DNA of 42,443 nucleotides, from IMG/VR virus record IMGVR_UViG_3300045988_096068, positions 1 through 42,443 of that record; one strand, given 5' to 3'. This document shows positions 3,141-18,484 of this stretch, piece by piece. Under the pieces are notes generated by a model that saw only the letters and a list, made by a program, of their open reading frames with translations, was not told where the DNA came from and searched no databases. Source of the DNA: a virus. The stretch's first letter is position 1. Every line of letters begins with the position of its first letter. The translations under genes and the position numbers were made by a program.

Positions 3141-4278
3141 TATCATCTTGGTCGTTATAGTATGCAATCATTTTTTGCGTTGCATCTTTGAGCTTTCGTT
3201 CGCGGATGTGTGTGTAGATCTTGTAAGTCGTCGAGATATCAGCGTGACCCATTATTTTTTTGGCTTCCAGCACACCGACGCCTGCGTCGTATAAGTCCGA
3301 CGCGAACGCATGCCGAAATTGGTGGGCTGTCACTGTAGGCTCCAGCACCAGCGGCAGCGGATTTGCAGAGGATTTTGGGCCCCGGCGGCTGTCTCTATAG
3401 CGGGTTTTACTTTTGCTGGGCCGCACAAGGCCTAGCTCGGTGCAGTAGCTGAGCCATCGGCTGTGATACTCTGCATCCGTCAAGGGCCTTGCCATGCCAC
3501 CGATGACATACTCTGTCGGCTTTCCCCGGCGCGGCTCTATCTCTTGCCTGAGATGGGGCATAAGCGGGATGACCCGGACGCCGTTATTGGTTTTGGGGTC
3601 CTGTATTTTGACACCGCCACCTGACCAGGAAACTTTCTTGCTGACATAGATTTTGTTGTTTTCGAAATCTATGTCCTCCCATCGGAGAGCAATCAGCTCA
3701 CCCAGGCGGCAGCCGGTGTACATCAGCATCCAGGCGCACAGCCCGAACCCTTCGGGATGCGCCCGGAAAAGAGCAAGCTCCTTGTCTGTAGGCGGTTCCC
3801 GGATGGCCGCAGGCTTCCCGGCGGGGGGCTTGATATCTTGCATCGGATTGTATGCCGACCCGCTTGCAAGACGCCAGCCGCGAAAAATGCCGCGCAAAAC
3901 GCTGATCGTGTTCCGGATGCTGCTCGTTGATAACCCCTCATCTTTGAGCGCCTGACCGAATCCGGCTACCATGGCCGGTGTGATCTCGTCCATCCTGCGG
4001 CCCGCGAAGTATTTGACGCAGCGGTCATAGTTGGACCTATAAGACGAGTCTGTCCCCTCCTCAATGCGTTTGAGCAGCTTTTCCCAGTAATCTTTGGCGA
4101 CGGCTTCAAACAATTCGGCTTTGGCGGACTCCTCTTTTCTCTGCATCAAGGCCTCTTTGTATTTTGCCTCGGCCTCGGTCTTTGTTTTGCCGTAAAATAC
4201 CTTATATTTTCCGTCCGGCATTTTGCGCTTGACTTGATATCGTCCATCCGCGCGCTGGCCTTTTCTACTTTTTGGCAT
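3133..4278 (-). CDS. int: Tyrosine recombinase (phage integrase)
   Basis: 381 aa. The C-terminal catalytic region contains HQFRHAFASDLY...GHADISTTYKIYTH (R...HxxR...Y signature), with an N-terminal SAM-like domain. It is adjacent to the tRNA-like core. Confidence 0.95.
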   Translation of the reverse strand: MPKSRKGQRADGRYQVKRKMPDGKYKVFYGKTKTEAEAKYKEALMQRKEESAKAELFEAVAKDYWEKLLKRIEEGTDSSYRSNYDRCVKYFAGRRMDEITPAMVAGFGQALKDEGLSTSSIRNTISVLRGIFRGWRLASGSAYNPMQDIKPPAGKPAAIREPPTDKELALFRAHPEGFGLCAWMLMYTGCRLGELIALRWEDIDFENNKIYVSKKVSWSGGGVKIQDPKTNNGVRVIPLMPHLRQEIEPRRGKPTEYVIGGMARPLTDAEYHSRWLSYCTELGLVRPSKSKTRYRDSRRGPKSSANPLPLVLEPTVTAHQFRHAFASDLYDAGVGVLEAKKIMGHADISTTYKIYTHIRERKLKDATQKMIAYYNDQDDKK

Positions 4279-4870
4279 CTCGTGTATCCTCCATGTTTTT
4301 TACGGAATAAGCATCCACGCCCTGGAGGGCTGCTTTCTGGCCGCAGTCGCGCGCCTGGCGCACAACGTCCATGACCGGCTGTGTTCCGTTCGGGTCGGGG
4401 TCGGTCTTCGTCGACTGCGTCATCTCATAGTGGCCGATGATGGCATTGACGATGGACACCCGGTCCCGCAAAGGAGTGTGTAAGTTTGCCAGCACCTCCG
4501 TCAGCACCCCCATCGGGTCGGAGCCGTGATCGCCATAGTAGAGGTACAGCCAGCCGTCCACCTCGTAGTTGGACATCTCATCCACGGCGGCGTGAAGGAT
4601 CTGGCGCTTCTCCTCGGTGGAGATGTCCTCTTGTAAGTAATCGAGCAGACCGGGATAGATACAGGCGTCCATGCAGCGCCGGGCCGGGATGCTGCACGCT
4701 ACGCACCAATTGATAATGTCAGCCAGCGTCACAGGGGATGTTCCCCGCTCCCTGCTGGCCACGGTCGGCTTGCTGATTCCAAGCCGTTTTGCCAGCTTTT
4801 CCTGGCTGAGCCCGGCTTTTGCCCTTGCCATTTCGAGCGCTTTTGCCACTTGCAAGTCATACTCGTTCAT
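4265..4870 (-). CDS. XRE-family HTH regulator with an unknown C-terminal domain (candidate repressor, 201 aa)
   Basis: HTH motif GLSQEKLAKRLGISKPTVASRE. The start was chosen at ATG 4870, preceded by AAAAAGGAGG. It overlaps the int start by 14 nt. Confidence 0.8.
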   Translation of the reverse strand: MNEYDLQVAKALEMARAKAGLSQEKLAKRLGISKPTVASRERGTSPVTLADIINWCVACSIPARRCMDACIYPGLLDYLQEDISTEEKRQILHAAVDEMSNYEVDGWLYLYYGDHGSDPMGVLTEVLANLHTPLRDRVSIVNAIIGHYEMTQSTKTDPDPNGTQPVMDVVRQARDCGQKAALQGVDAYSVKNMEDTRDAKK

Positions 4871-4978
4871 AATTGCCTCCTTTTTACCGATTCGACACGA
4901 TATTGCGTATAGATTCCTTTCCATCTCCTATGATATAACAATTATGTAAAAAATTTCCATCGCAGGAGGTAAAAAATT

Positions 4979-5083
4979 ATGGCTGCTATTATGTATGTAC
5001 CCGACGATATGGAGATCATCGACGGGATGCCCGCATCAAAACCAAAAGACCCGGATCGCGTCCGGGCCCCGTGGGAGGAATGA
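4979..5083 (+). CDS. Possible very small ORF (34 aa) divergent from the HTH regulator
   Basis: ATG 4979 follows AGGAGGT. TGA at 5081..5083 overlaps the next start (ATGA). No similarity recognised. Confidence 0.3.
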   Translation: MAAIMYVPDDMEIIDGMPASKPKDPDRVRAPWEE

Positions 5084-5286
5084 CTATGCCAACTGATACC
5101 ATGCTGCTGGACTACGTCCGAAACCGCACACTCAATCTTGTGTACACGCTATCCAATTATGCCGCTGATCCGGACGTCTACGGCGAGCTGCTGCGCATTG
5201 CCCAGCAGGCCAAAGACGACGCTGACTCCGGCATTGACCCCGGCGACCGGCTGGATTGCATCAATGGCCGTGTTGTCGAGCTGTGA
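5080..5286 (+). CDS. Hypothetical small acidic protein (68 aa)
   Basis: Listed in the ORF track as 5071..5286. ATG 5080 is preferred, and GGGAGG lies upstream. Confidence 0.5.
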   Translation: MTMPTDTMLLDYVRNRTLNLVYTLSNYAADPDVYGELLRIAQQAKDDADSGIDPGDRLDCINGRVVEL

Positions 5287-5326
5287 CATCTTCCCCGTCG
5301 TCAGCCCGGCGGCGGGGAATGATTTT

Positions 5327-5343
5327 GTGTCCACTGTGGACAC
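5327..5343. repeat. Perfect 17-bp palindrome GTGTCCACTGTGGACAC (copy A)
   Basis: Read directly. Intergenic, between convergent genes. CCCGGCGGCGGGG lies 10 nt upstream. Confidence 0.9.
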
Positions 5344-5345
5344 CT

Positions 5346-6065
5346 TCACAAGCTTTTTTCTAAGAGCTGAGACTTTTTCGCGTTATATTCTTCTTCAGTA
5401 ATCGCACCCATATCCAAGAGCCGCTTAAACTTCAAAAGTTCATCTGCAACGCTGTTGACACGTCCGTATGCAGATTGTGTCTGTGATTTCTTTTCCATGC
5501 AGGCCTTCAGCAGAGCGGTCATCCCGGCGGGATACGTCTGCGCTGACAGAGTCTTTTTGCCAAAAGGAAGCTCAAAAGAAATCGTTATATTTTCCTTGCC
5601 CTTACCTTTTCGAGTCTCTGTTTTTGCTGTAGATGCTCCCACGATCGCGCCGACTGGGCCGGCAATGGCTGCGCCGACCACGGCACGACCGATTCCGCCT
5701 TTGGTCTGCGTGACGGTGAAATCTTCCGAATCTGACTCGTAACCGGATACTTCGTCAAAGGCGTAGATCATGCGAGGGCCTTTGTCTCCGCTTCGACGAC
5801 CAAAATAAAAGAGTCCGTTTTCGTCGTCCACAGAAACATAAAGTGAATCTGCATCATAAAGAGAATCTGTTTCCTTAAACTGTTTCCGGCGTTTTTCCTG
5901 GACTGCCCAAAAATCAGCCAACTCTTTTGTCGAAAATTTGGACGCCTGAAATCCGACCTTTGAATAGAAAAAGTTCATGCAGCTGGAACAGATCAATCCG
6001 TCCGCGCTTCTTTCCCGATTCAACAGGCCCATTTTTCCACCGCAAACAGGGCATAAATTTGCCAT
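5346..6065 (-). CDS. Accessory protein with an N-terminal zinc ribbon (DUF4428-like), a glycine-zipper segment and a C-terminal SHOCT-like motif
   Basis: Motifs seen: CPVCGGKMGLL...CSSC; GGIGRAVVGAAIAGPVGAIVGA; C-terminal ELLKFKRLLDMGAITEEEYNAKKSQLL. The gene is visibly AT-richer than the flanks. Confidence 0.75.
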   Translation of the reverse strand: MANLCPVCGGKMGLLNRERSADGLICSSCMNFFYSKVGFQASKFSTKELADFWAVQEKRRKQFKETDSLYDADSLYVSVDDENGLFYFGRRSGDKGPRMIYAFDEVSGYESDSEDFTVTQTKGGIGRAVVGAAIAGPVGAIVGASTAKTETRKGKGKENITISFELPFGKKTLSAQTYPAGMTALLKACMEKKSQTQSAYGRVNSVADELLKFKRLLDMGAITEEEYNAKKSQLLEKSL

Positions 6066-6085
6066 AACTTGTCCTCTTCTCTTTG

Positions 6086-6979
6086 TTAATAAGCAATTTT
6101 TACAAATTTGCTTCCTAATTTATGCGATTCGAGGTTTTCCAAAACACGTTTTTGAACATTCGGAGATACGGCCATCAAACTTTCATAAGCATCTAAAACC
6201 TTTGTGATTGCTTCGCGGTCGTTTTGATAACTGCTCATTTGGTAATCGTATTGGGAATCCGAACCCTTAAAACGATAAACAGCTTTTTTGGCTGAAACTG
6301 ATTTTTTTAGCATCTCAATTTCCACCGGGTCGGCTATTTCGTCGCGGACTTCCCAAACGGTGGTATAATTTGATCCAATTTCTTTCAGAACTTTTTGACT
6401 GGACTCTGTATTGAAATACTTTTTGTAAACTTCTCCATCCACGGAGTAAACAATGCTATTCCAGAAAATCCAGTTTCCTCCGTAATAAGTGTATATCAGC
6501 CGAATTGGCTGAATTTCATCATTTTTTACGCAAAAATACGGAAGAATAAAAGTTGTTTGCGTTGACAAAGGCCATTTGCTCCAATAGTAAATATCGAAGT
6601 TTTCTACATCATCATGCTCTTTATAAAGACTTTTTCTTAGTTTTTCGGTTAAATATTCAACTTGCAAATCTTCCAATTCCTCGGTGGCGAGCTTCAACGT
6701 TTCATAATTGGAAACCATGGCTTTCCACTCGTCCGGAAGAGAATCATAAGCACCCTGTGCGTTTGCAATTGCGGTAGCGCTTTCCAACGTGATTGGTCCG
6801 ATCTGATTGATTTGTGCTTCCACCTGTTCCGGAGTAGTGACCTCGTTTTCCTTCTCCAACTGCGCCAGCGAGGTGTACCCGGCGGGGCTGAGTGCCATTG
6901 TAGGCAGGGCAGCACCGGCCAGAGTTGCCGCAATGCACAAACCTGCAACCATCGTTTTGCCAATTTTCACAAGTTTCAT
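6086..6979 (-). CDS. Secreted accessory protein of unknown function (297 aa, signal peptide)
   Basis: The start was chosen at ATG 6979 after GGAGAAAG. The N-terminus MKLVKIGKTMVAGLCIAATLAGAALPTMALS looks like a signal peptide. AT-rich. Confidence 0.7.
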   Translation of the reverse strand: MKLVKIGKTMVAGLCIAATLAGAALPTMALSPAGYTSLAQLEKENEVTTPEQVEAQINQIGPITLESATAIANAQGAYDSLPDEWKAMVSNYETLKLATEELEDLQVEYLTEKLRKSLYKEHDDVENFDIYYWSKWPLSTQTTFILPYFCVKNDEIQPIRLIYTYYGGNWIFWNSIVYSVDGEVYKKYFNTESSQKVLKEIGSNYTTVWEVRDEIADPVEIEMLKKSVSAKKAVYRFKGSDSQYDYQMSSYQNDREAITKVLDAYESLMAVSPNVQKRVLENLESHKLGSKFVKIAY

Positions 6980-7061
6980 GATTCTTTCTCCGTTCTCTTG
7001 ATTTTTTATCATCATGGTTGTAATATAAAACCATGAAATACAACTTAAAGGAGTGTTATGA

Positions 7062-7160
7062 ATGTCTGACAACGAATTTTTGGCCCTTTTGCGGGAACAT
7101 CCGGAACTTTGGGAACTCGTACTGCGTACCCTTCAAGGGTTTGAAAAGGCCGTTGTCTGA
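7062..7160 (+). CDS. Possible very small ORF (32 aa)
   Basis: ATG 7062 lies 8 nt after AAGGAG, and TGA is at 7158..7160. No other support. Confidence 0.25.
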   Translation: MSDNEFLALLREHPELWELVLRTLQGFEKAVV

Positions 7161-7168
7161 CATCGCGG

Positions 7169-7197
7169 TTGACCTTTTTGCTTCAAGTCCATATAAT
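7169..7197 (+). promoter_or_regulatory. Near-consensus sigma-70-type promoter TTGACC-17-TATAAT
   Basis: TTGACC at 7169..7174, an exact 17-nt spacer, TATAAT at 7192..7197, about 45 nt upstream of ATG 7242. Confidence 0.65.
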
Positions 7198-7241
7198 GAC
7201 GGTAGTGCGAATGTTTATTCACTTTCAGAAAGGAGAACTAT

Positions 7242-7577
7242 ATGCTTGATGCTCTTCGAGAAAAACTTTTCCCCCAATCACCTGAACCTGTTCCCTCGGC
7301 TATTACCTGCGGAATCACAGGGGGGATGCACACTTATCGGATTTCGCTGCGCGAAGAATGCAACAACCCTTCGGAAGTCGCTGAAATCGTAGATGCAGTG
7401 ATTCGCATGATGAAGGAAAAAAAAGTTTCTTTGCAGACTGCCATGTATCTGCCCGAAGCCTTGCACGATGAGCTCGAAAAGAGCTTTTACATTCAGGTCT
7501 TTACAAGCATTTTGGCACCGTTACCGAACGATGGTGACGATCAGCGCGACGATGGAAACGGCCAAGGCCAGAACTGA
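7242..7577 (+). CDS. Hypothetical protein (111 aa) with its own strong promoter
   Basis: RBS GAAAGGAG. Its 3' end overlaps the convergent gene 7521..7859 by 57 nt. Confidence 0.55.
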   Translation: MLDALREKLFPQSPEPVPSAITCGITGGMHTYRISLREECNNPSEVAEIVDAVIRMMKEKKVSLQTAMYLPEALHDELEKSFYIQVFTSILAPLPNDGDDQRDDGNGQGQN

Positions 7578-7859
7578 CAGTGTATTTGCAAACCGCAGCT
7601 CGCTTTTCCGGCGGGCCAGATATTGCAGATACAGTTTTCCGTTTTGCGAGATTTTGTATGTGCCTTTCGGGCTGATTCCATTGGAACAGTCCGGCTCATA
7701 ATCGACCAGGCCCAAATCGCATAAACTTTTAAGCCTTGTCGGCCAATCGCCGGTATTCTCTACCGTTTTTTGCGAAAGCAGGCGCAGATCTTCCAGCTCT
7801 TCGGGAGACAGCACCAGCGTCGAAAAATCCGGGATGTCCGCATGGTCCACGATCCTCAT
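7521..7859 (-). CDS. Hypothetical protein with a C-terminal membrane anchor (112 aa), co-transcribed with the XRE regulator
   Basis: The start overlaps the upstream stop (ATGA-type coupling at 7856..7859). C-terminal TM segment LSVLALAVSIVALIVTIV. Confidence 0.6.
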   Translation of the reverse strand: MRIVDHADIPDFSTLVLSPEELEDLRLLSQKTVENTGDWPTRLKSLCDLGLVDYEPDCSNGISPKGTYKISQNGKLYLQYLARRKSELRFANTLSVLALAVSIVALIVTIVR

Positions 7860-8185
7860 CCTTCTTTCTTGCTGCTCTCCAACACGGCCAGCGCGGCGGC
7901 TTTGGCTGCTGCACGTGCTTCCGGTGTTGCACTCTTGTAAGCCACTTCAATGTCGGCCCATTCTCTTTCGAGCTCGCCTTGCCCGGCGGGCTCTTTTTTT
8001 GTGCCCATCAGCTCCTCGACCGAGATGCCAAAATAATCGGCGATCTTCTTGCGGTTTTTAACTTGCGGTAAAGCGCCGTTTTTCCAACTTGTCACAGCGG
8101 AACGCTTAAAGCCCAAATCTTCAACAACAACTGTCGGTGATTTTTCGATTTTCTCGCACTGATTTACAAAATTACGCCAAAACAA
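7856..8185 (-). CDS. XRE/Cro-CI-type HTH regulator (candidate lysogeny repressor)
   Basis: HTH region DLGFKRSAVTSWKNGALPQVKNRKKIADYFGISVEELMG. The track ORF extends to 8209, but AAGGAGGTGG lies inside it, so a TTG start at 8185 (or GTG at 8194) is more likely. Confidence 0.8.
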   Translation of the reverse strand: MFWRNFVNQCEKIEKSPTVVVEDLGFKRSAVTSWKNGALPQVKNRKKIADYFGISVEELMGTKKEPAGQGELEREWADIEVAYKSATPEARAAAKAAALAVLESSKKEG

Positions 8186-8219
8186 AAATACCACCTCCTT
8201 TTTGTTCAACTTGCCAAAT

Positions 8220-8276
8220 ATCGAACTTTGCGTTACTTTTTGAGTAAAAGTTCTTGAAAGTCCGTTAAAGTTCGAT
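8220..8276. promoter_or_regulatory. 10-bp inverted repeat ATCGAACTTT ... AAAGTTCGAT (candidate operator pair)
   Basis: Arms at 8220..8229 and 8267..8276. The right arm lies in the spacer of the rightward promoter, and the left arm is next to the repressor start. Confidence 0.4.
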
Positions 8277-8282
8277 TATAAT
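8254..8282 (+). promoter_or_regulatory. Near-consensus rightward (early lytic) promoter TTGAAA-17-TATAAT
   Basis: TTGAAA at 8254..8259, a 17-nt spacer, TATAAT at 8277..8282. It is divergent from the XRE repressor gene. Confidence 0.65.
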
Positions 8283-8288
8283 AGTACC

Positions 8289-8612
8289 GTACTCAAGAGC
8301 GAGTCCCTATCCCAGACCGCTTGAGTGCTCATGGGTTCTTCCTGAATGCTGCTTTGCGTTTCAGATGATGCCCCCTACCGCGCGACGGGCCTCAGCCATA
8401 GACCCGAAACGACCGCAAAAACGCCGTACCTCGTTTTTGCGTATACCGCCCCCATCTTGACCGTGGGGGACGGTCACACATTGCCGAGATTTTGGGCGCA
8501 TGTGATCGAGTGTAATTGATTCCGCAAATCTATTATAACCCGATTGCACCCGCTTGGCAATGTTTTTTGTGGTCAAAATACGAACAATTATTCACAGGTG
8601 AGGTGGAAAAAA
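8289..8612 (+). other. About 320-nt hairpin-rich untranslated leader between the early promoter and the Cro-like gene
   Basis: No RBS-preceded ORF. Stems include ACTCAAGAGCG/CGCTTGAGT, CGCAAAAACG/CGTTTTTGCG (8414..8441) and CCGCCCCCA/TGGGGGACGG (8446..8473). Confidence 0.35.
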
Positions 8613-8804
8613 ATGCAGACAACCGTTACGCCGGAGTGGGAATGCGAGGTCCGGAAGCGGATGAAGATTCTCGGCGTGAAGAATTACACCGTTTTGGCCG
8701 AGAAGACCGGATACAGCGAGAGCACCGTCCGGAAATACATGTGCGGCTGTTATACCAACGACAACCCCCGCGTGGGAATCGAGCAGGCGCTTGGGATGAG
8801 GTGA
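8613..8804 (+). CDS. Small HTH protein, Cro-like / early regulator (63 aa)
   Basis: ATG 8613 follows AGGTGAGGTGG. The HTH-like region is NYTVLAEKTGYSESTVRKYM. It is the first gene of the rightward operon. Confidence 0.65.
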   Translation: MQTTVTPEWECEVRKRMKILGVKNYTVLAEKTGYSESTVRKYMCGCYTNDNPRVGIEQALGMR

Positions 8805-8808
8805 CAAA

Positions 8809-8985
8809 ATGGCAAGGAGTGCAATATTTGCCTGTTTTATGTGTTTTGTCGCGGGCGGATGCCTCGGCATCTTTGTGATCGTGGGTGCTTCCCGCCCCCA
8901 GAAGAAGGTTTTGCTGGGCTGGGTCGCCTATCTGCTTGTGGTTCTGGCCCTGGCTTATCGAATCGGAGGTGCATTGCTGTTATGA
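8809..8985 (+). CDS. Hypothetical small two-TM membrane protein (58 aa)
   Basis: Below the track threshold. ATG 8809, TGA 8983..8985. Two hydrophobic segments. Confidence 0.45.
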   Translation: MARSAIFACFMCFVAGGCLGIFVIVGASRPQKKVLLGWVAYLLVVLALAYRIGGALLL

Positions 8986-9194
8986 CCTGTTACATTTTTG
9001 CGGACCTGTTGGTCCTGCTGGGGCGCGATGCTTATCACGCCCAGATGACCGAGACGCTGTTCCTGCTGTTCCTGCTGGCACCGATCGTGGCCGGTGCGCC
9101 GTACCTGCTGGCCCGGTGGGACGCATACAAGCGCGCTGACAACGCCCGGCGGCGGGCGGCGCAGCGGCGGCGGATGGAAAGGATGGCGAAGTGA
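8982..9194 (+). CDS. Hypothetical small membrane protein with an Arg-rich tail (70 aa)
   Basis: ATG 8982 overlaps the previous stop (ATGA). GGAGGT lies 11 nt upstream. TM segment LFLLFLLAPIVAGAPYLL. Confidence 0.5.
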   Translation: MTCYIFADLLVLLGRDAYHAQMTETLFLLFLLAPIVAGAPYLLARWDAYKRADNARRRAAQRRRMERMAK

Positions 9195-9195
9195 T

Positions 9196-9537
9196 ATGGG
9201 CGCTCCAGGAAGATACACCCGCATCTGCGAGGACTGCGGGGTCGTGATGGAGAATGTTGGTGCAACGCGCCGGTTCTGCCCGGGGTGTCTGGCCAAGCGC
9301 AGCGCGGAGAAGGCGCGCAACGCCGACCGCGCCAAGCGGGCCGAATGGAAAGAGTGGGAGGCTCAGAGGAGAGTTGAGCAGGAACTTCGAAAGGCGTTCC
9401 CGCATCCGCAGAAGCCGACCGCAGAGAACAGCATCCAGGCTGTCAATGCCCGCGCGGAAGCGGCTGGCCGCTCCTACGGCCAGCAGGTGCTATTTGAACG
9501 CAGACAGAAGGAGTTGAAAGACCGTGGCGAAATCTAG
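9196..9537 (+). CDS. Zinc-ribbon protein with a basic coiled-coil tail (113 aa)
   Basis: CEDCG...CPGC motif, followed by a Lys/Arg/Glu-rich helix. ATG 9196 is an internal Met of track ORF 9094..9537. Confidence 0.6.
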   Translation: MGAPGRYTRICEDCGVVMENVGATRRFCPGCLAKRSAEKARNADRAKRAEWKEWEAQRRVEQELRKAFPHPQKPTAENSIQAVNARAEAAGRSYGQQVLFERRQKELKDRGEI

Positions 9538-9760: not shown

Positions 9761-9773
9761 TGGAGGACAAAAA

Positions 9774-10100
9774 ATGGAAGCAACGAACCCTGTGATGACG
9801 AACGATCTTTCCCCGGCGGGTGATCCGCTCAGGCCGCTCGGCCCGGAAATGATCTCCCAGATGGTCAAGGACAGCGTGGAGCGCGGCCAGCCCAACCGGG
9901 AGCTGTCCACGGCGAGCAGATACCTTCTGCTGGCCGCAACGAATATTTGCGAAGAGGCATTCCGGAACGTTTCCGGCTTCCTGGACCACTTCCAGAGCGA
10001 CGAGGCCGAGTATTGGGCGCTGGACGCAAAAAAAGCTATGGATCAGACCCACCGTGTGCTCAACGTCCTCGCCGAGATCGAGGGGCTGGATATCCCCTGA
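9774..10100 (+). CDS. Hypothetical protein (108 aa)
   Basis: ATG 9774 follows GGAGGA. It is in frame within track ORF 9645..10100. Confidence 0.6.
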   Translation: MEATNPVMTNDLSPAGDPLRPLGPEMISQMVKDSVERGQPNRELSTASRYLLLAATNICEEAFRNVSGFLDHFQSDEAEYWALDAKKAMDQTHRVLNVLAEIEGLDIP

Positions 10101-10113
10101 CCCATCCCCACCA

Positions 10114-10175
10114 CTGGCGGCAGGTGGTAAAACAAGAGCCGCTGCCAGCGCGAAAGCGTAAAATAGTTTGAAACA
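10114..10175 (+). repeat. Structured intergenic element, copy 1 (hairpin plus GCGAAAGC GNRA-type hairpin)
   Basis: About 75-80% identical to 10797..10859. CTGGCGGC/GCCGCTGCCAG stem, then GCGAAAGC. Confidence 0.6.
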
Positions 10176-11170: not shown

Positions 11171-11779
11171 ATGCCAACAAAATCTAACTCCCGGCGGCGT
11201 GGGCCGTCTGCGGGCGTTTCTGGCGGGGTTTTGTCTGAGCCTATCAGTTTCCCGGTCAAGGGCCCGAAAGCCCGCGAGATCAAGCCGGAGGAGTGCGTGG
11301 TGCGCGTTATTGCTGCCTGCGAGGATGGAATCCGCGTTGTGGTGCTCCCGAAGGAGTCTGCCGTGCGGGACATCCTCAACGAGACATACGGCCCGCTGGG
11401 CTGGGGCGACTCGTACTACTACACCAAAAATTGGTGGAGATGCCAGCTCGAAGTGCTCTCCCCTGTCAATGGTCTTCCGGTGCGGAAGGACGCTGGGCCG
11501 ATGTGCCTGCCCTCCGCCGATGTGGACCGGATGCAGGAAAACACCAGCTTTCTCCGCGCGGCGGCACTGTTCGGCGTCGCGGAGGACGTGATGGACCTGA
11601 AGCCCATCGCCCTGAAGAGCGAGCAGGTCCCGGTGGTGAAGGACCAGCACGGCGTATGGCGCGCGGCGGAAAAGCTCACGGTGGACCGTTTTGCCCGCGC
11701 TGAAGACGGACACATCCACATGGTGCAGTTTGCACTGGCCAGCGGGAAGAAAGTCTTATGGGACGAGGCGACGTTGTAG
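11171..11779 (+). CDS. Putative Rad52/Sak-like single-strand annealing protein
   Basis: LNETYGPLGWG and SFLRAAALFGV resemble the conserved Rad52/Sak motifs (LdevfGpfGW, KRAAvqFGIG). It sits beside NinB and SSB. The family call is from memory. Confidence 0.55.
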   Translation: MPTKSNSRRRGPSAGVSGGVLSEPISFPVKGPKAREIKPEECVVRVIAACEDGIRVVVLPKESAVRDILNETYGPLGWGDSYYYTKNWWRCQLEVLSPVNGLPVRKDAGPMCLPSADVDRMQENTSFLRAAALFGVAEDVMDLKPIALKSEQVPVVKDQHGVWRAAEKLTVDRFARAEDGHIHMVQFALASGKKVLWDEATL

Positions 11780-12312
11780 GAAGCCTCCCGGTCGTCTATG
11801 ACCCAGCCCGGCAGCAGATCGTTGTGGAAAACTCGGCGGAATTTGTGAAAACACAGATCCGCCAAAAGCTGGACGATCTGGCACATGGCTCTCCGCTGCG
11901 GCTGACGCTCACCGTGGAGCGGCAGCGAAAAAAACGCTCGCTGGAACAGAACCGCATGATGTGGGCGCTGCTCACCATTATGGCTGACACGTACAACGCT
12001 GGGAAAGCTGGCGGCACCACCCCGGAAGCCTGCTATATCGAGATGCTCGAAGAATACGGCCTCGAATATGATTTTCTGGAGCTTCCGGTGGCCGCTGTGC
12101 CCATCCTGCGCAAGGCATACCGGCTGGTATCCGTGGTAGAGCTGCTGGACAACGACCGCTGCACTGTCAAGGCGTCGATGGGTTCCAGCAGCTTTTCCAC
12201 CGCTCAGATGACGGCCTTTATCGACGGCATTTTTGACCGTCTGGCCGAGATGGACGTCAACGACCCGAATGTGACACGATATTGGCAGGAATGGCAGGAG
12301 GTGCCGAGATGA
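11758..12312 (+). CDS. ninB: NinB/Orf-family recombination mediator
   Basis: RSLEQNRMMWALL matches the RSLDQNRKLWACL signature of lambda NinB. Recombination-module context. Confidence 0.75.
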   Translation: MGRGDVVGSLPVVYDPARQQIVVENSAEFVKTQIRQKLDDLAHGSPLRLTLTVERQRKKRSLEQNRMMWALLTIMADTYNAGKAGGTTPEACYIEMLEEYGLEYDFLELPVAAVPILRKAYRLVSVVELLDNDRCTVKASMGSSSFSTAQMTAFIDGIFDRLAEMDVNDPNVTRYWQEWQEVPR

Positions 12313-12485
12313 CCAAAAAGCGTTTAATCAAGCTTTTGATGGGCGATTTTGGCTTGCCCAAGCGGGTTGCAACCCAAAAAGCTATCCTTGCAAATCAAAA
12401 TCACATTCCCTACGAAAAAGTATATTATTATTTTTTTGAGTATCGGCGGTATATAAATTTTGAGGCGTTGAGATATGGCAAATAG
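12309..12485 (+). CDS. Hypothetical small protein (58 aa)
   Basis: ATG 12309 follows AGGAGGTG and overlaps the ninB stop. AT-richer 3' half. Confidence 0.5.
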   Translation: MTKKRLIKLLMGDFGLPKRVATQKAILANQNHIPYEKVYYYFFEYRRYINFEALRYGK

Positions 12486-12786
12486 CATCATGCAGACCCG
12501 GCGGGAGTGTTATGTCTGCCGGATGAAGTACAACGTGTCCACCGTGGACATGCTGGAAGAGCACCATGTGCTCAACGGCCCGCTGCGGCCAGTGGCCGAA
12601 AAGTATGGCCTGAAGGTCTGGCTGTGTCACCGGCACCACAACGAGCCGGGATACAGTGCCCATTTTGACCACCACCTTCGACTCGACCTCAAAAAGCAGG
12701 CCCAGCAGGATTTTGAGGACCTCTATGGGCACAACCGCTGGATGGCGGAAATCGGAAAGGACTATCTGAAATGCTCAACATTGTAG
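12475..12786 (+). CDS. Zinc-binding His/Cys-rich phage protein (putative HNH-like nuclease or resolvase-associated protein)
   Basis: CYVC...EEHHVLNGPLRPVAEKYGLKVWLCHRHHN. This pattern recurs in Firmicutes phage recombination modules, but I do not know its function. Confidence 0.5.
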   Translation: MANSIMQTRRECYVCRMKYNVSTVDMLEEHHVLNGPLRPVAEKYGLKVWLCHRHHNEPGYSAHFDHHLRLDLKKQAQQDFEDLYGHNRWMAEIGKDYLKCSTL

Positions 12787-13226
12787 CGATCATGGGGCGG
12801 CTCGTCGCAGATCCTGAACTGCGCACCACCGCAAATGGCACCAACGTGTGCAGCTTCCGTATCGCCTGCGACCGGAACTTTGTCTCTCAGGGGCAGGAAC
12901 GGCAGGCGGATTTTATCGACATCGTGGTCTGGCGGCAGGCGGCTGATTTTGTCTGTAAGTATTTCCAGAAAGGCAGCATGATCGCCGTGGACGGCGCATT
13001 GCAGAGCCGGAATTACAAGGACAAGCAGGGCAACAGCCGAACGGCTGTGGAGGTCGTGGCGAACCATATCAGCTTTGCCGGGCCCAGCAAGAAGCCCGGC
13101 GGGCAGGCCGTGGATGACGGCGGCGAAGCACCGCCCAAAGGCTACCGAGAGCCCGCACCAGCATATTCTCAAGGCTCCTCTGATGATTTCGCTGTGATCG
13201 ACGACAATGATGACCTGCCGTTCTGA
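12771..13226 (+). CDS. ssb: Single-stranded DNA-binding protein
   Basis: OB-fold N-terminus MLNIVAIMGRLVADPELRTTANGTNVCSFRIA, a Gly/Pro-rich linker and the acidic tail DDNDDLPF. Confidence 0.95.
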   Translation: MLNIVAIMGRLVADPELRTTANGTNVCSFRIACDRNFVSQGQERQADFIDIVVWRQAADFVCKYFQKGSMIAVDGALQSRNYKDKQGNSRTAVEVVANHISFAGPSKKPGGQAVDDGGEAPPKGYREPAPAYSQGSSDDFAVIDDNDDLPF

Positions 13227-13233
13227 CCCTCTT

Positions 13234-13243
13234 GGGGGGGGGG
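13234..13243 (+). repeat. G10 homopolymer between the ssb stop and the replication-initiator start
   Basis: CTTGGGGGGGGGGTAACTTGTG. The run sits where the SD of the GTG 13250 start should be. Confidence 0.9.
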
Positions 13244-13249
13244 TAACTT

Positions 13250-14140
13250 GTGAAAAACACTACTAAAAAACAGAGCTATATTATGATCCTCGACTGGATG
13301 GTCGATAAGTACAAGCTCAAGGGCAACGAGCTGCTGGCCTACGCGCTGATCTATGGATTCAGCCAGGATGGCGAGAGCGAGTACAAGGGCAGCTTCAGCT
13401 ATCTTTCCCGGTGGTTGGGCGCCGACCGTGCAACAATAATCCGGGTGCTCAAGCGGCTGGAAAGCAAAGGCCTGCTCACAAAACGGCAGGAACTTGTGGC
13501 CGGTCAGATGGTCAACCGGTACGTTGCCGAGGTCCCCGAAGAGGTCCAGAAGACGGTCGAAAGCAAGGACGATGCACCCGAAAATCCGGCGGAATCTCAC
13601 CCGCCTGACCAGTGGCAAAACGCCACTAGTCGCAAAATGCCACTAGTGGCAAAATGCGACGGGGACCAGTGGCAAAACGCCACGGGGGGTAGTGGCAAAA
13701 CGCCACCCAGTAATACTACTGGGTATACTACTGGGTATACTACTCCTTCGTGCGCGCGAGGCGCACAAGGGGGCGAACCTACCCCGAAGGATGTTTTCGC
13801 GGAGTATGCCGGAACGGACAAGCCTCTGCTGGAGGCTCTGACCCGGTTCGACGCATACCGGGCATCCCGGCGGGGCAAGGCATGGGACGCCCAGGCTGCA
13901 CGAGCTGTGTGTGACAAGCTCACCCAGCTGGCGGATGAATCAAAAACAACAAAACGCACAGAGTACATGATCGCCAGCATCATGCAGAGCATCGAGGCTG
14001 GATGGAGTGTCCTGGATCACCCGAAGAGCTGGGGCGGCGCACCGAAGCTGAGAAAGACAGTGGACCGGCCCGAACCCAGCGGGAACGATTTTTTGAAAAA
14101 CGCTGCACACCGGCGGTCACTCGCCCGGAAGTGCGGATAG
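13250..14140 (+). CDS. Replication initiator / replisome-organiser-like protein (N-terminal winged HTH) containing the origin iterons
   Basis: The N-terminal region LAYALIYGFS...SFSYLSRWLGADRATIIRVLKRLESKGLL is wHTH-like. It has an internal iteron array, as in lambda O-type initiators. The GTG start is uncertain. Confidence 0.7.
   Translation: MKNTTKKQSYIMILDWMVDKYKLKGNELLAYALIYGFSQDGESEYKGSFSYLSRWLGADRATIIRVLKRLESKGLLTKRQELVAGQMVNRYVAEVPEEVQKTVESKDDAPENPAESHPPDQWQNATSRKMPLVAKCDGDQWQNATGGSGKTPPSNTTGYTTGYTTPSCARGAQGGEPTPKDVFAEYAGTDKPLLEALTRFDAYRASRRGKAWDAQAARAVCDKLTQLADESKTTKRTEYMIASIMQSIEAGWSVLDHPKSWGGAPKLRKTVDRPEPSGNDFLKNAAHRRSLARKCG
13611..13706 (+). repeat. Five iterons AGTGGCAAAACGCCAC (candidate origin of replication)
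   Basis: Copies at 13611, 13628, 13645, 13668 and 13691, spaced 17, 17, 23 and 23 nt. Each contains the inverted GTGGC..GCCAC. Confidence 0.75.
13713..13744 (+). repeat. 2.7 tandem copies of the 12-bp unit ATACTACTGGGT next to the iterons
   Basis: Read directly. It encodes the TGYTTGYTT stretch of the initiator. Confidence 0.8.
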
Positions 14141-14162
14141 AACAAAAACGGAGGAACCCACA

Positions 14163-14957
14163 ATGAGAAATATGGCTAAGATCGCGATCATTAACCTCAA
14201 GGGCGGCGTCGGAAAGTCCGTCACCGCCTGCAACCTGTCCTGCATCCTGGCGGGCATCCATTCCCGGCGGGTGCTGGTCATGGATCTGGACAAGCAGGCC
14301 AACACGAGCAAATTTTTCAAGCGGTTTTCGGACACGGCAGACACGATGGGCGACGTGCTGGAACTCAGAGTCAAGCTGCCCGACGTGATCCAGCAGACCG
14401 ATTTTGACGGCGTTGACATTGCACCAAGCAACATGAGCATGCTGCTGGCCAACAAAAACGTGATGTTCGACGTCCGGCGTCCGCAGGCCGACCGGCTGAA
14501 GAACGCCCTCGAACCGCTGCGAAACGATTACGATTACTGCATTTTCGACTGTCCACCCGACATCGACATGGCCACCATCAACGCTCTGGTTGCTGCTGAT
14601 TACGTCATCATCCCGGTGGATTGCGACGAGTGGGCGCTGGATGGGCTGGCCGAGATCATGGATCAGGTGCGGGACATCCAGCACGGATACAACCACGAGC
14701 TTGCCGTGATGGGCGTGCTGGCCACCAAGTATTACCGGTGCCTGTATTCGACACAGGCCATCAATCAGATCGCCCATCTTGATATCCCGGCTTTCCGGAA
14801 CGAGGACGGCAGCGTGATGCGCATCAACAACAGCGTCCGAGTCAAGGAGGCAAAATCGGCACATGAGCCGCTGTACAAGTTCGCACCCAAGTGCAAGCCT
14901 GCCGAGCAGTACAAAAATCTGGCAGTACGTGTGATGCAGATCGTGGAGGGAAAGTGA
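14163..14957 (+). CDS. parA: ParA/Soj-type partition ATPase
   Basis: Deviant Walker A NLKGGVGKS near the N-terminus. Length 264 aa. Immediately followed by parB. Confidence 0.9.
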   Translation: MRNMAKIAIINLKGGVGKSVTACNLSCILAGIHSRRVLVMDLDKQANTSKFFKRFSDTADTMGDVLELRVKLPDVIQQTDFDGVDIAPSNMSMLLANKNVMFDVRRPQADRLKNALEPLRNDYDYCIFDCPPDIDMATINALVAADYVIIPVDCDEWALDGLAEIMDQVRDIQHGYNHELAVMGVLATKYYRCLYSTQAINQIAHLDIPAFRNEDGSVMRINNSVRVKEAKSAHEPLYKFAPKCKPAEQYKNLAVRVMQIVEGK

Positions 14958-14958
14958 T

Positions 14959-16080
14959 ATGAGCACTGGATTATTGAGCGGGCTTCTGGGTGCACAGCCG
15001 TCCACCCCGGCGGGGCCTGGGATGCGGGTGGTCATGATCGACCGCAAAAACATCATTATCAACCCGGACAACCGGAAGATCTATCGCATCGGGGACGTGT
15101 CACGGCTCAAAGAGGATATCAAGACCAACGGCATCCGCCAGCCGCTGGAAGTGGTGGAGCTGGATAATGGCAATTACAAGCTGATCGGCGGAGAGCGGCG
15201 GTTGACCGCTTGCGAGGAGCTGGCCAAAGAGGGCGATACACGGTTTGAGGCTCTTCCCTGCGTCATCCTCAAGCTCAAGCATGACGATGACGAGAAGATC
15301 GCGCTCATCACGGCCAACGCTACCGCCCGCGACCTGACGGACGGTGAACGGCTGGCGCAGTATGAGACGCTCAAGGAGATTTTAACGAGGCGAAAAAGCC
15401 TCGGTGGGCTGAGCGGAAAGGTCCGTGATGAGCTGTGCAGGATCCTGGGCTTGAGCACTGGTGCAGCGGCCCGGCTAAACGCGATCTCGGAAAACTGCGG
15501 CGATGATACCAAGCGGGAGCTTCAGGCCGGGGAAATCACCCTGATGGGCGCATATCGTCGGGCACAAGAGATTATTGCGGCGCGGATGGCGCAGCAGGAA
15601 GCAGCCAAAGCCCCGAAACCAGATAAACCGGTGAACGAAAAGCCGGTCGTGTTCGACTGCAAACCAGAGTCTTCGGTAACGGTACCGCAGAATCCTGATT
15701 ATGACGAATGGAATCTTCCGCTAGAGTGCCGGTTGGCAGTAGAAGAAGCCCACAAAAAAGCCAAAGAAGCCACGGCAAGCCATGGCATGCCAGAGAAACC
15801 CGAAGAATCCCGTGGGAAGGACACACTGCGCAAGCTGGCGGAAAAAGAATTGAGCCAAAAGGCCTTATGGACCTTAGACCGCAATCTGTTTATTTATCGG
15901 CTGTATTTTTACAAGCATTCTCTCCCCGGCGGGGCGGAACTGTACCGCATGGAAGATAAGCAGAAGGATGAGCATAAACGATATGCGATCATACTGCAAG
16001 ATTACGAGTTTTTCACATCCGGCTGGGAAACTTACGAGGAAGCAGTCGAAAGTCTTGTCCGATACCTGAACCTGAAATAA
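14959..16080 (+). CDS. parB: ParB-family protein (N-terminal ParB/Srx domain)
   Basis: IRQPLEVVELDNGNYKLIGGERRLTACEEL matches the ParB box with the GERR arginine patch. The start is 2 nt after the parA stop. Confidence 0.85.
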   Translation: MSTGLLSGLLGAQPSTPAGPGMRVVMIDRKNIIINPDNRKIYRIGDVSRLKEDIKTNGIRQPLEVVELDNGNYKLIGGERRLTACEELAKEGDTRFEALPCVILKLKHDDDEKIALITANATARDLTDGERLAQYETLKEILTRRKSLGGLSGKVRDELCRILGLSTGAAARLNAISENCGDDTKRELQAGEITLMGAYRRAQEIIAARMAQQEAAKAPKPDKPVNEKPVVFDCKPESSVTVPQNPDYDEWNLPLECRLAVEEAHKKAKEATASHGMPEKPEESRGKDTLRKLAEKELSQKALWTLDRNLFIYRLYFYKHSLPGGAELYRMEDKQKDEHKRYAIILQDYEFFTSGWETYEEAVESLVRYLNLK

Positions 16081-16093
16081 GTGAGGCAGAACC

Positions 16094-16744
16094 ATGAAAG
16101 TCCTTATCGCTTGCGAGGAATCGCAGGAAGTTTGCAAAGCGTTTCGTGCAAAAAATCACGAAGCCTACTCTTGCGACATTCAGGAACCATCAGGAGGGCA
16201 TCCTGAATGGCACATTCTTGGAGATGCGCTCAAGGCTATTGAGGGGGGGCAAATCGTGACGATGGACGGCGTAGAGCATGACATCGGGAAATGGGATTTG
16301 CTCATTGCGCACCCGCCTTGCACTTATTTGACAAAAGCCGGCGGAAATAGGTTAGTGATTGACGGCAAAATTCAAGCAGAGCGATATAAAAAAGGATGCG
16401 ATGCACGAGATTTTTTCATGAAGTTCTGGAATGCCCCGGTGGATAAAATAGCAATAGAAAATCCGATACCAATGAGAATCTTTGGATTGCCAGAATACAG
16501 CCAGATCATTCAGCCGTATATGTTCGGAGAGGAATACATGAAAACGACGTGCTTATGGCTGAAAAACATTCCGGGACTGTTCGCCACAGATATCGTTATA
16601 CCTACGTCGAAATGGGTCTCGTCGTCAGATCATCGTGCGGTGAAACGAAAAGACGCATGGTCTCAAAGTGGCCATAGAACAGCGAAACAGCGAAGCAAAA
16701 CATTTTCCGGCATTGCAAAAGCCATGTCTGAGCAGTGGGGATAG
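16094..16744 (+). CDS. C5-cytosine methyltransferase-like protein (short form)
   Basis: HPPCTYLTKAG (PC catalytic motif) and IENP (ENV-like motif). No canonical FxGxG motif I, so activity is uncertain. Confidence 0.55.
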   Translation: MKVLIACEESQEVCKAFRAKNHEAYSCDIQEPSGGHPEWHILGDALKAIEGGQIVTMDGVEHDIGKWDLLIAHPPCTYLTKAGGNRLVIDGKIQAERYKKGCDARDFFMKFWNAPVDKIAIENPIPMRIFGLPEYSQIIQPYMFGEEYMKTTCLWLKNIPGLFATDIVIPTSKWVSSSDHRAVKRKDAWSQSGHRTAKQRSKTFSGIAKAMSEQWG

Positions 16745-16776
16745 ATAATTTTTATAAAAACTAAGGAGGAACCACA

Positions 16777-17229
16777 ATGGAGCCGCTGACGCCACGAGAA
16801 TTTCGGAAATTGTATGCTATCCCTTACGACATCGAAAAACGTCAGCGGCGCATTGAACAGCTCGAAGCAATACAGGCTGACGGCCCGCAGAGCGCCTCCG
16901 ATGTGGTCAAGTCTTCCAGCGGTGAGGGGAACGCCTGCATCCTGAGTCACGCGACCGTGACCGGAACGGACATTTCCTTCACCCGGCGGGAAGATGAGAT
17001 CAAGCGGCTCAAGCGGACCAACGTCCAGCAGCGGAAAAAGTACATGTATGGTCTGAGCCTTATTGAGAGCTGCGATGACTGCGAGCTGCGGGCGCTGCTC
17101 ACGGCAGTCTGCACGGAAGGCAAAAAGCCGCAGATCGTGGCAGTCGAGCTTATGGAGAAGGGAATGGATGTTGGTCCTGAAGCCATTCGAAGCCGAGTGG
17201 ATCGGTGGATTAAGAAGAATGTGAGGTAA
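16777..17229 (+). CDS. Putative sigma-region-4-like phage transcription regulator (DUF1492-like)
   Basis: The C-terminal IESCDDCELRALLTAVCTEGKKPQIVAVELM...EAIRSRVDRWIKK resembles late-activator families. Assigned from memory. Confidence 0.45.
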   Translation: MEPLTPREFRKLYAIPYDIEKRQRRIEQLEAIQADGPQSASDVVKSSSGEGNACILSHATVTGTDISFTRREDEIKRLKRTNVQQRKKYMYGLSLIESCDDCELRALLTAVCTEGKKPQIVAVELMEKGMDVGPEAIRSRVDRWIKKNVR

Positions 17230-17234
17230 GGCAA

Positions 17235-17474
17235 ATGAAAAATTGTCCTGTGTGTGATTTTATTAGACAATCTAAAGACGCTTTGGAAGAACTTGGCGGA
17301 TATGTGTCCTTCGGGTGCTCTACAATAGCGTGGTATCATAGAGATGATAATCTAATATATTCCATGAACAGTAACGGAACAACTCAACTTTTATATTGCC
17401 CTAATTGCGGACTCCCGATAAATGAAATCCAGAGAAATCCAGAGCATCTAAAGGAGACCAATAATGACAGATGA
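17235..17474 (+). CDS. Small zinc-ribbon protein (79 aa)
   Basis: CPVC...CPNC pairs. AT-rich segment. Confidence 0.6.
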   Translation: MKNCPVCDFIRQSKDALEELGGYVSFGCSTIAWYHRDDNLIYSMNSNGTTQLLYCPNCGLPINEIQRNPEHLKETNNDR

Positions 17475-18126
17475 AGGCTTCCGACGGCTTGCAAGTGATT
17501 TGAAGTGCGGCCTGATTACTGTGGACCAAATTCGAGCGGCAGGATTAGATCGAGAAGTAAAGGATTATCTGGATTCTTCCCAATACGCCTATATTGAGAC
17601 TATGAGAAAAGATGACCTTGAAAGAAGAAAAAATTCTGACACGATAAACCCACTGCACTACGAGATGTGCAAAGATTCTTCTGATCCATGCAAAGGCTGC
17701 TCAAATCTTACGTCGTTATATGCGGATGATAAAGTTGTTGAGCAATTCTGTGAAGACCGCACCTGCCCCATCTGGCTCAAAGACCATCCAAAAGATAAAA
17801 TCAAACAGGTCAAAACGCTCACAGTCGAAGAGTGGAGGCGGAAAGTAGCAAAAGAGGAAGAGCCTGCAAACCCGTGTGCGGGGTGCAAGTTCCGGAAGTA
17901 CCACGATTGGTTAGAACCAACATGGAAAGGACCCTCTGCCCATTACTACGACTGCGAAAATCCATCCTGCCCGAATTGGAACCGGCTGTGGTGGCGAAAC
18001 AACGATGATGGCTCACCTCTTCTGGATCAGGAACCTATCAAGCTGAAGAGAAAGATTCAACACGCGGCCTATGCGCTGGTAACGTGGATGAACAATGCTA
18101 TCAGCACAATTTCAGAAGAAATCTAA
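17464..18126 (+). CDS. Hypothetical Cys-rich protein (220 aa)
   Basis: Several CxxC / CPxW motifs (PCKGCSNL, RTCPIW, PCAGCKF, PSCPNW). RBS AAGGAGA. Confidence 0.65.
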   Translation: MTDEGFRRLASDLKCGLITVDQIRAAGLDREVKDYLDSSQYAYIETMRKDDLERRKNSDTINPLHYEMCKDSSDPCKGCSNLTSLYADDKVVEQFCEDRTCPIWLKDHPKDKIKQVKTLTVEEWRRKVAKEEEPANPCAGCKFRKYHDWLEPTWKGPSAHYYDCENPSCPNWNRLWWRNNDDGSPLLDQEPIKLKRKIQHAAYALVTWMNNAISTISEEI

Positions 18127-18220
18127 AAAATATTTCAAAGTATTCAAGTAAAACAGGCAAATTCAGTTCAAATAAGTCATACTTTCAAAAGCGCGTTTCT
18201 CGCAGCATCGTAATTCCCGT

Positions 18221-18302
18221 GCACGAAATGCACGGATTGCAGCAAAACGCACGAAATGACCGAAATGACCGAAATGCACGATTTGACCGGATTGCGCATT
18301 TT
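18221..18302 (+). repeat. Nine tandem ~9-bp units (consensus GMMCGRAWT) directly upstream of a promoter
   Basis: GCACGAAAT GCACGGATT GCAGCAAAAC GCACGAAAT GACCGAAAT GACCGAAAT GCACGATTT GACCGGATT GCGCATTTT. Confidence 0.85.
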
Positions 18303-18307
18303 TAATG

Positions 18308-18316
18308 TGCTATAAT
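18308..18316 (+). promoter_or_regulatory. Extended -10 promoter element TGCTATAAT
   Basis: TATAAT at 18311..18316 is preceded by TGC. There is no good -35; the repeat array occupies that position. Confidence 0.5.
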
Positions 18317-18484
18317 CAAAATGCGGTTATTGGGTGAAAGCCCAAGAAACCGCTCATTGTGGATTCGGACTTCCCGGCGGGAATCATAGAGCGGTCGAAC
18401 CTTACCGCACTCAATGGGACCAGCGCCGTCCGCTTCAAAACCCAGCGGCGCATGACGAACAAGATATCACATCCACCCGGCGGG
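18317..18484 (+). other. Hairpin-rich leader or candidate ncRNA
   Basis: Stems GCGGTT/AACCGC enclosing TGGG/CCCA; TTCCC/GGGAA; GCGGT/ACCGC; GCGCCG/CGGCGC. It contains two CCCGGCGGG copies. No convincing ORF. Confidence 0.3.

Follow-up and report, generated by a model that had tools for sequence, protein, structure and literature searches.

What reads a 9-bp word that a phage repeats fourteen times on one strand, and why do the copies stop short of its late operon? The question is raised by the viral sequence IMGVR_UViG_3300045988_096068, of which the whole stretch of 42,443 nt (the window) was analysed. The word, CCCGGCGGG, occurs in 14 exact copies, all on the plus strand and with starts from 3817 to 18476, and its reverse complement does not occur in the window; a script and a pattern tool returned exactly the positions that an initial annotation of this DNA had collected by manual scan. 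The same annotation had reported four plus-strand copies of CCCGGCGGC, in which position 9 is C instead of G, and about 25 plus-strand copies and a single minus-strand copy of the 7-mer core CCGGCGG. The former were recovered at the same places, and the latter was counted 25 times on the plus strand, including two copies in the late region (25541 and 30185), and once on the minus strand (38326). With the variants included, the motif domain spans 3381-18484, that is, all of the genome except the late operon.

Chance does not account for these numbers. The expectation of about one copy or less per 42 kb, given beforehand, agrees with dinucleotide shuffles of the window, which yielded 0.69 copies on both strands together (maximum 3), and Markov models of order 1, 3 and 5 predicted 0.09, 0.31 and 2.3 copies, respectively, for the 14.7-kb domain. 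The excess is roughly 20-fold, and scripted counts against shuffled controls placed CCCGGCGGG first among all 9-mers of the window, the runners-up being words of a tandem repeat. Inverted copies are absent, whereas about five are expected from composition. A codon- or protein-level cause was ruled out: synonymous-codon shuffles gave 2.05 copies on the plus strand and 0.22 on the minus strand, compared with 14 observed on the plus strand, and, as had been noticed before, the word lies within four minus-strand genes (int, a DUF4428/SHOCT gene, a gene for a 297-amino-acid (aa) protein and an XRE gene), within plus-strand genes, where all three codon phases are used, and in the non-coding late leader. 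Its density, 0.95 per kb in the domain, drops slightly with distance from the packaging-module end (4, 4, 3, 3, 3 and 1 copies per 3 kb), and its copies are spaced a little more evenly than random ones (coefficient of variation 0.72 vs. 0.91). A literature search for the motif string returned no relevant match. The copies, followed by the variants, are located as follows.

3817..3825, plus strand: motif copy inside int (a minus-strand gene), still found at int residue 153 when the integrase is 38% identical
5523..5531, plus strand: motif copy inside the DUF4428/SHOCT gene (minus strand)
6878..6886, plus strand: motif copy inside the gene for the 297-aa protein (minus strand)
7982..7990, plus strand: motif copy inside the XRE gene (minus strand), part of a conserved plus-strand terminator-like hairpin (7970-7993)
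9812..9820, plus strand: motif copy in an early gene for a 108-aa protein
12497..12505, plus strand: motif copy at codon 9 of the gene for a 103-aa CxxC/HH (HNH-like) protein
13095..13103, plus strand: motif copy in the C-terminal tail of the SSB gene
13866..13874, plus strand: motif copy in the replication initiator gene
14263..14271, plus strand: motif copy in parA
15006..15014, plus strand: motif copy in the parB-like gene, residue 18
15925..15933, plus strand: motif copy in the parB-like gene, residue 324, present in 15/15 relatives though the flanks diverge
16982..16990, plus strand: motif copy in the gene for a 150-aa protein
18373..18381, plus strand: copy 1 of the late-operon leader
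18476..18484, plus strand: copy 2 of the late-operon leader, with a 17-bp palindrome immediately after it
3381..3389, plus strand: variant CCCGGCGGC (position 9 G>C), the sole tolerated variant
5305..5313, plus strand: variant CCCGGCGGC, inside a plus-strand terminator-like hairpin
9145..9153, plus strand: variant CCCGGCGGC, position kept in relatives
11190..11198, plus strand: variant CCCGGCGGC, position kept in relatives

The two plus-strand terminator-like hairpins with a T-run that contain a motif copy or variant (7970-8000 and 5291-5329) sit within or between minus-strand lysogeny genes; the hairpin of the XRE gene hardly varies, even at XRE identities of only 37-57%.

Enrichment and polarity extend to the whole lineage, as became clear when the count was repeated in related phages along the lines of the initial annotation. 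Related loci, from more than 150 genomes, were gathered through four anchor genes, namely those for ParB, TerL, the integrase (in metagenomes) and a moron protein. In the resulting 154 loci (2.79 Mb, redundant), CCCGGCGGG was found 1375 times on one strand and once on the other, corresponding to 364 versus 0 distinct sequence contexts. In each genome with this early module it is the top 9-mer, with 4-15 copies per available stretch on a single strand, and no copy was found from TerL onward in the family genomes. The motif survives the swap of the late module for an unrelated one (loci L008-L010 and L014) as well as the swap of the initiator, but relatives with a different early module lack it, whether they have TerL (67-73% identity) or the moron cassette (85-98% identity) in common.

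The anatomy of the sites is equally consistent across the family. The edges of the motif are sharp at 9 bp, with flank information of about 0 bits, and position 9 alone tolerates change (G in 364 contexts, C in 68, T in 11 and A in 5). The C variant CCCGGCGGC is itself strand-locked (68:0), and any other single-base variant of CCCGGCGGG occurs at most 21 times, mostly as transitions. The sites are fixed in position, about one per gene, and often form identity islands amid diverged flanks, as in int at 38% protein identity or at ParB residue 324 in all 15 relatives; site turnover was seen between subfamilies. Fixed positions, sharp 9-bp edges and information-free flanks indicate, on sequence grounds, purifying selection on a DNA word that is read in one direction. 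Moreover, the word, which is context-free, falls in all codon phases and in genes of both orientations and varies only at position 9, has the profile expected of scanning on single-stranded DNA rather than of a degenerate protein-binding site. The suggestion that selection acts on DNA of uniform polarity, and not on protein or transcript, thus holds over all 154 loci, whereas a compositional signature of a mosaic early arm, proposed in the initial annotation as an alternative, is excluded by positional conservation and the sharp boundaries.

The window represents a circular genome of 42,324 bp, bases 1-119 recurring at 42325-42443, and over 30 gut metagenomes yielded the same phage as contigs of roughly 42.3 kb; a DNA similarity search against known phages found no close relative. 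Judged from its sequence, it is a temperate gut phage with Faecalibacterium as host: integrated relatives adjoin spoIVB-spo0A, a flanking protein is 97% identical to a protein of F. prausnitzii M21/2, and the endolysin is 59% identical to that of the phage FP_Lugh. The left arm is mostly leftward, with int (3133-4278), a helix-turn-helix protein, the DUF4428/SHOCT protein, the 297-aa protein and XRE (7856-8185). A rightward early operon from about 8.6 kb encodes, among others, NinB/Orf, the HNH-like 103-aa protein, SSB, an iteron-bearing initiator, ParA, a Spo0J/Noc-like ParB and the 150-aa protein. A strong promoter-like site with upstream direct repeats at about 18.3 kb is followed by a leader of about 200 nt and by the late operon, which comprises two tRNAs, an N6-methyladenine (m6A) methyltransferase, HNH, terS, TerL, structural and lysis genes and a moron cassette ending at 2917. 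Two further gene groups are located as follows.

20570..23133, plus strand: HNH endonuclease, terS and TerL, the packaging module from which cos (about 20.9-21.1 kb) and rightward packaging are deduced
11171..13226, plus strand: recombination-type genes adjoining the densest motif stretch, for a 202-aa protein (candidate annealase), NinB/Orf, the HNH-like 103-aa protein and SSB

A single-sequence AlphaFold model of the 202-aa protein was unusable (mean predicted local distance difference test score, pLDDT, of 56), and its identity as an annealase stays that of a candidate. Pfam, PHROG and NCBIfam searches of the window found no Gam-like inhibitor or exonuclease; several early open reading frames (ORFs) are unannotated.

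With some hesitation, and at slightly less than an even chance, we read CCCGGCGG(G) as a Chi-like polar control word for an AddAB-type enzyme of the host that enters at the cos-proximal right end. Since HNH-terS-TerL lie at 20.6-23.1 kb, cos would be near 21 kb, between the HNH gene and terS, and packaging would run rightwards. Cutting of the phage DNA at cos would leave or expose a right-hand double-strand end, at which the host helicase-nuclease (AddAB in Firmicutes) would enter and move leftwards, coming upon each copy 3' side first on the 3'-ended (plus) strand, which is the geometry of active Chi. Recognition of the word would switch the enzyme from degradation to the making of a recombinogenic 3' tail. 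This tail could be used by the NinB/Orf, HNH-like and SSB proteins together with host RecA for recombination-dependent replication and concatemer formation, and the replicating phage DNA would be protected meanwhile. In this scheme, what we infer is where exactly cos lies, which end is entered, that AddAB reads the word and what follows from it. The packaging geometry, already sketched in the initial annotation, is plausible: the copies are confined to 15 kb to the left of the packaging module, their domain stops 2.5 kb short of HNH-terS-TerL, within the leader of the late operon, and that operon holds no copies.

A similar arrangement has been described in Chi-rich lambdoid phages. In the E. 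coli phage LLS, 20 of 23 Chi sites are in the active orientation and half lie within the genome's rightmost 22%, and in the P. aeruginosa phage MD8 Chi is the commonest octamer, is found 32:0 by strand and clustered at the right end, and is accompanied by a NinG homolog (PMC12315714). In both, Chi accumulates near the right end and is active for RecBCD entering there (PMC12315714). Phage P1 belongs with LLS and MD8 to a Chi-rich class that has no nuclease inhibitor, and sister phages that encode their own inhibitors lack the word (Zheng et al. 2025, PMC12315714). As in LLS and MD8, the word of the window phage is the commonest k-mer, has one orientation, is concentrated at the early-gene end by cos and occurs about once per 1-2 kb. 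The differences are that LLS and MD8 carry the known Chi of a RecBCD host, whereas here the host is a Firmicute (AddAB) that has no known Chi, the word is a 9-mer and over-representation in the host is not demonstrated; moreover, the late half of the window phage has zero copies, and NinB, SSB and a candidate annealase are present.

The AddAB words AGCGG (B. subtilis) and GAAGCGG (S. aureus) have been reported from Firmicutes, the density of Chi in S. aureus being only about 1 per 8 kb (bioRxiv 10.1101/2021.07.08.451572). Like the AddAB words, which act orientation-dependently on the 3'-ended strand, the phage word is short, asymmetric and G-rich, with a GCGG-like end; unlike them (5-7 nt, abundant, about 90% replication-co-oriented), it has 8-9 nt and shows no skew in a small host sample. 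The Chi word of the AddAB-type enzyme of L. lactis is GCGCGTG.

Independent support for the Chi-like interpretation comes from the cultured F. prausnitzii phage FP_Lugh (MG711464.1): unrelated to the window phage but of the same host genus, it shows polar enrichment of the 8-mer core. FP_Lugh contains CCCGGCGG 12 times on the minus strand and twice on the plus strand, in the range 7853-25109, compared with 2.5 copies expected from synonymous shuffles with its annotated genes (P<0.002) and 3.2 on both strands from dinucleotide shuffles. The copies, in two reading frames and with random flanks, run antisense to every gene and mostly cluster just inside (right of) terS/TerL. Only the endolysin is common to FP_Lugh and the window phage, and FP_Lugh has no ParB. 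No polar excess was found in the F. prausnitzii phages Mushu, Epona and Lagaffe, which carry Mu Gam-like end protectors.

A second strand-locked 9-mer, GCGGGCGGC, was found in the loci L400 (8:0, 1222-9338; 0.43 expected), L402 (7:1, 1050-9743) and L403 (7:0, 4202-14839). L400 has no DNA similarity to L402/L403, and their ParB proteins are distantly related (29-35% identity). Both CCCGGCGGG and GCGGGCGGC end in GGCGG plus one base, an ending that by analogy resembles the Firmicute AddAB words named above. Another one-strand word, CCCACCCTCA(C) / CCCTCACCCC, was seen in L150, L151 and L162, which have a related TerL and unrelated early modules (4-6 copies versus 0).

Several observations weigh against a Chi-like role, above all those made on host DNA. 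The host sample consisted of an empty integration site and its extension, related species and two other prophage flanks, in total 44.9 kb of Faecalibacterium-like DNA. It contains about 2 copies of the 9-mer (0.045 per kb vs. 0.95 in the phage domain). The 8-mer was found 16 times in host coding sequence versus 6.9 expected (51 kb, synonymous shuffle), an excess of about 2.3-fold, which speaks for a Chi word but is modest and similar to that of several other G/C words: among 136 G/C-only 8-mer pairs, the 8-mer ranked 3rd in the 51-kb set and 14th in the pooled one. From strain to strain its sites are not conserved, and its distribution between majority and minority gene strands (18:12, non-independent counts from one region) does not reveal skew. 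In lysogens, the prophage copies oppose the orientation of the flanking host genes. Over-representation and strand skew in the host, named in the initial annotation as a check on its Chi suggestion, were therefore not borne out, with the 9-mer at background, the 8-mer weakly enriched and no strand skew in about 45 kb; the suggestion gained support from the polar enrichment of the core in FP_Lugh. Host loci reached through Mu-like transposase insertion sites were uninformative, their flanks coming from other hosts (G+C content 47-55%, tetranucleotide correlation 0.2-0.6).

Further objections come from the phages themselves. Both the position of cos and the end that is entered first are deductions, and the copies reach 17 kb from that end, beyond what protection alone needs. 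To our knowledge, a fully specified 9-mer exceeds the length of any AddAB Chi. The family favours G at position 9, whereas FP_Lugh and the host mostly have C, and the motif co-occurs perfectly with one ParB clade. In L011 (IMGVR_UViG_3300045988_036887, 9358-20825), with a 60%-identical ParB, CCCGGCGGS is enriched yet non-polar (8 on the plus and 5 on the minus strand, including structural genes), and the 17-bp palindrome is absent. The lack of the word in a co-resident 57-kb phage type that shares the moron cassette (about 55 loci, zero copies) was also considered as an argument against Chi and was dropped because many lambdoid phages are without Chi too.

The objections from the ParB clade point to a serious rival, the one with the largest share of the remaining probability, although we regard it as rather unlikely: the word could be read by a protein of the phage early module (the Spo0J/Noc-like ParB, another early protein or a factor that retargets a host enzyme) with a local role in the early/lysogeny/replication domain, for instance as a polar roadblock or loading site. 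The motif is found in every genome with this ParB clade (42-100% identity) and is missing where the late module or moron cassette is shared but the early module differs; L011, in which little more than ParB, a methyltransferase-like gene and SSB is common to the window phage, is still enriched (8+/5-); and the absence of the motif from the late operon, the family-specific G at position 9 and the weak host enrichment point the same way. Against this, binding alone leaves the 1375:1 polarity unexplained, the word stays invariant although ParB drops to 42% identity, and the 8-mer is polar-enriched in FP_Lugh without any ParB. Besides, 9 specified bp with random flanks differ from the ~16-bp palindromes of ParB/Noc helix-turn-helix sites, and the GTGTCCACNGTGGACAC palindrome is a much better parS or operator candidate. 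A classical parS was rejected as unlikely, as the word is a strictly polar 9-mer with information-free flanks and a separate conserved 17-bp palindrome exists. Dispersed short sites are known from replicons such as N15 (sopC-type sites), P1 (C1 operators) and RK2 (KorB OB sites), but these are palindromic or promoter-tied, longer and not strand-locked; the likeness lies in a dozen or so copies scattered over a replicon with ParA and ParB, a role that the 17-bp palindrome fits better. In a related form, to which we attach a similarly low probability, the 9-mer would be a private polar signal of the lineage, read by an early-module factor (a ParB-clade CTPase or an AddAB-retargeting protein) and marking the early arm as self; the occurrence of GCGGGCGGC with a distantly related ParB would then be a case of reader-word co-variation.

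Polarity itself suggests other directional machines of the host, such as a translocase of FtsK/SpoIIIE type guided by words like the FtsK-orienting polar sequences (KOPS) or SpoIIIE recognition sequences (SRS), or orientation-dependent restriction (Type III/ISP), and we consider these improbable. The complete absence of inverted copies, the presence of spoIVA, spoIVB and spo0A in the host and the polarity of the core word in two unrelated phages of the host genus speak for such a machine, and KOPS and SRS are, like the present word, strictly polar 8-mers with counter-selected inverted copies. However, they are purine-rich, chromosome-wide and replication-co-oriented, with a strand switch at dif, whereas here the host flanks are nearly empty, the prophage copies oppose the local genes, and confinement to half of a 42-kb phage would be unexpected. 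Restriction explains the loss of one orientation, not a 20-fold gain or positional conservation; in phage T7, all EcoP15I (Type III) sites lie on one strand and inverted pairs are selected against, without the enrichment and positional conservation seen here. A DNA uptake sequence (DUS/USS), which occurs about once per kb host-wide and on both strands, was discarded in view of 0.045 copies per kb in the host and a single strand in the phage. A function in plus-strand RNA, such as that of a site where a regulator timing early versus late expression binds or cleaves, with the leader copies as key sites, seems very improbable. The two leader copies stand about 103 nt apart, a spacing that is fixed, on either side of a conserved leader, compensatory changes occur in one leader hairpin, the minimum-free-energy fold pairs both copies, and plus-strand promoter-like sites and terminator-like hairpins exist in the left arm. 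Nevertheless, six copies or variants are antisense to annotated left-arm genes, where there is no sign of continuous plus-strand transcription, the dispersed copies have neither local structure nor flank conservation, the leader fold reaches a z-score of only -1.75 with no Rfam match, and every FP_Lugh gene lies antisense to the word. Least credible of all, in our judgement, is that the word marks recombination junctions between modules that can be exchanged, or that a mosaic arm left it as a compositional relic. A frequency of about one copy per gene would suit module exchange, the site at ParB residue 18 shows all four combinations of left and right flank types, and in one gene homology begins at the motif; yet identity change-points within 25 bp of the motif are only about 2-fold enriched (8/~62), and discordance, scored in codon alignments of 10 genes, does not peak at the columns of the motif (percentiles 0-0.91, mean ~0.5). 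Since neither change-points nor left/right flank discordance peak at the motif, a module-exchange site was rejected, and a relic would not hold 9 bp invariant at fixed sites amid random flanks.

The Chi-like interpretation fits a kind of system described only recently, in a new host phylum and with a word not known before. If CCCGGCGGG is the AddAB word of Faecalibacterium, then this keystone gut commensal, and with it the Clostridia, would have a first candidate for Chi, longer than all those known, and the Chi-rich phage strategy would extend from RecBCD hosts to Firmicutes. Strand-locked top k-mers of phages could then reveal host words of uncultured bacteria, GCGGGCGGC being a second candidate found in this way, and practical work on Faecalibacterium (plasmid stability, recombineering, phage engineering) would be affected. 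Should the phage encode the reader, the word would instead represent a new kind of polar self-mark.

The 17-bp palindrome GTGTCCACNGTGGACAC is present in three perfect and two imperfect copies, at 5327-5343, 12535-12551, 18485-18501, 20957-20973 and 28180-28196. One copy stands right after the last motif in the late leader and another between HNH and terS, and the palindrome is kept across the family, most loci having 1-2 perfect copies. Its candidate roles are those of a parS, an operator or a terminase site. In the late control region (18220-18535), a promoter-like site, TTGCGC-17-TATAAT, is preceded by direct repeats of TGCACGAAA type (other subfamilies have TGTCCGrAwT), and the conserved leader of about 200 nt has two hairpins, one with compensatory base changes at 3 pairs, and no Rfam match. 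An Rfam scan of the window found two tRNAs only, tRNA-Met (CAT) and tRNA-Trp (CCA), located at the start of the late operon (18877-19034); a minus-strand ORF of 262 aa (18834-19622) is considered spurious because it overlaps the tRNA genes.

Repeats of other kinds were also noted. Iteron-like direct repeats inside the initiator gene (13607-13744; AGTGGCAAAACGCCAC type in 5 copies, then ATACTACTGGGT 2.7 times) mark a probable origin of replication. Inside the gene for a D12-class N6-adenine methyltransferase (19248-20573), 24 in-frame tandem copies of the 9-bp unit AAAGTCTGG (20017-20235) may form a length-variable linker or a phase-variable tract. A 75-aa ORF at 10556-10783 is made of about 33 imperfect ACGGCT hexamer repeats and has a Gly/Tyr/Ser-rich product. 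A 102-nt stretch of the 5' end of the GH25 endolysin gene (37391-37492) is duplicated with 90% identity at 41187-41288, in a second ORF (41110-41568), which belongs to the post-lysis accessory region. Finally, the three-gene cassette adjoining attP (935-2917; proteins of 290 aa and 123 aa and a DUF7841 protein) recurs at 85-98% identity in an unrelated, roughly 57-kb phage type (loci L182-L259), a similarity that indicates exchange of the cassette between Faecalibacterium phages.

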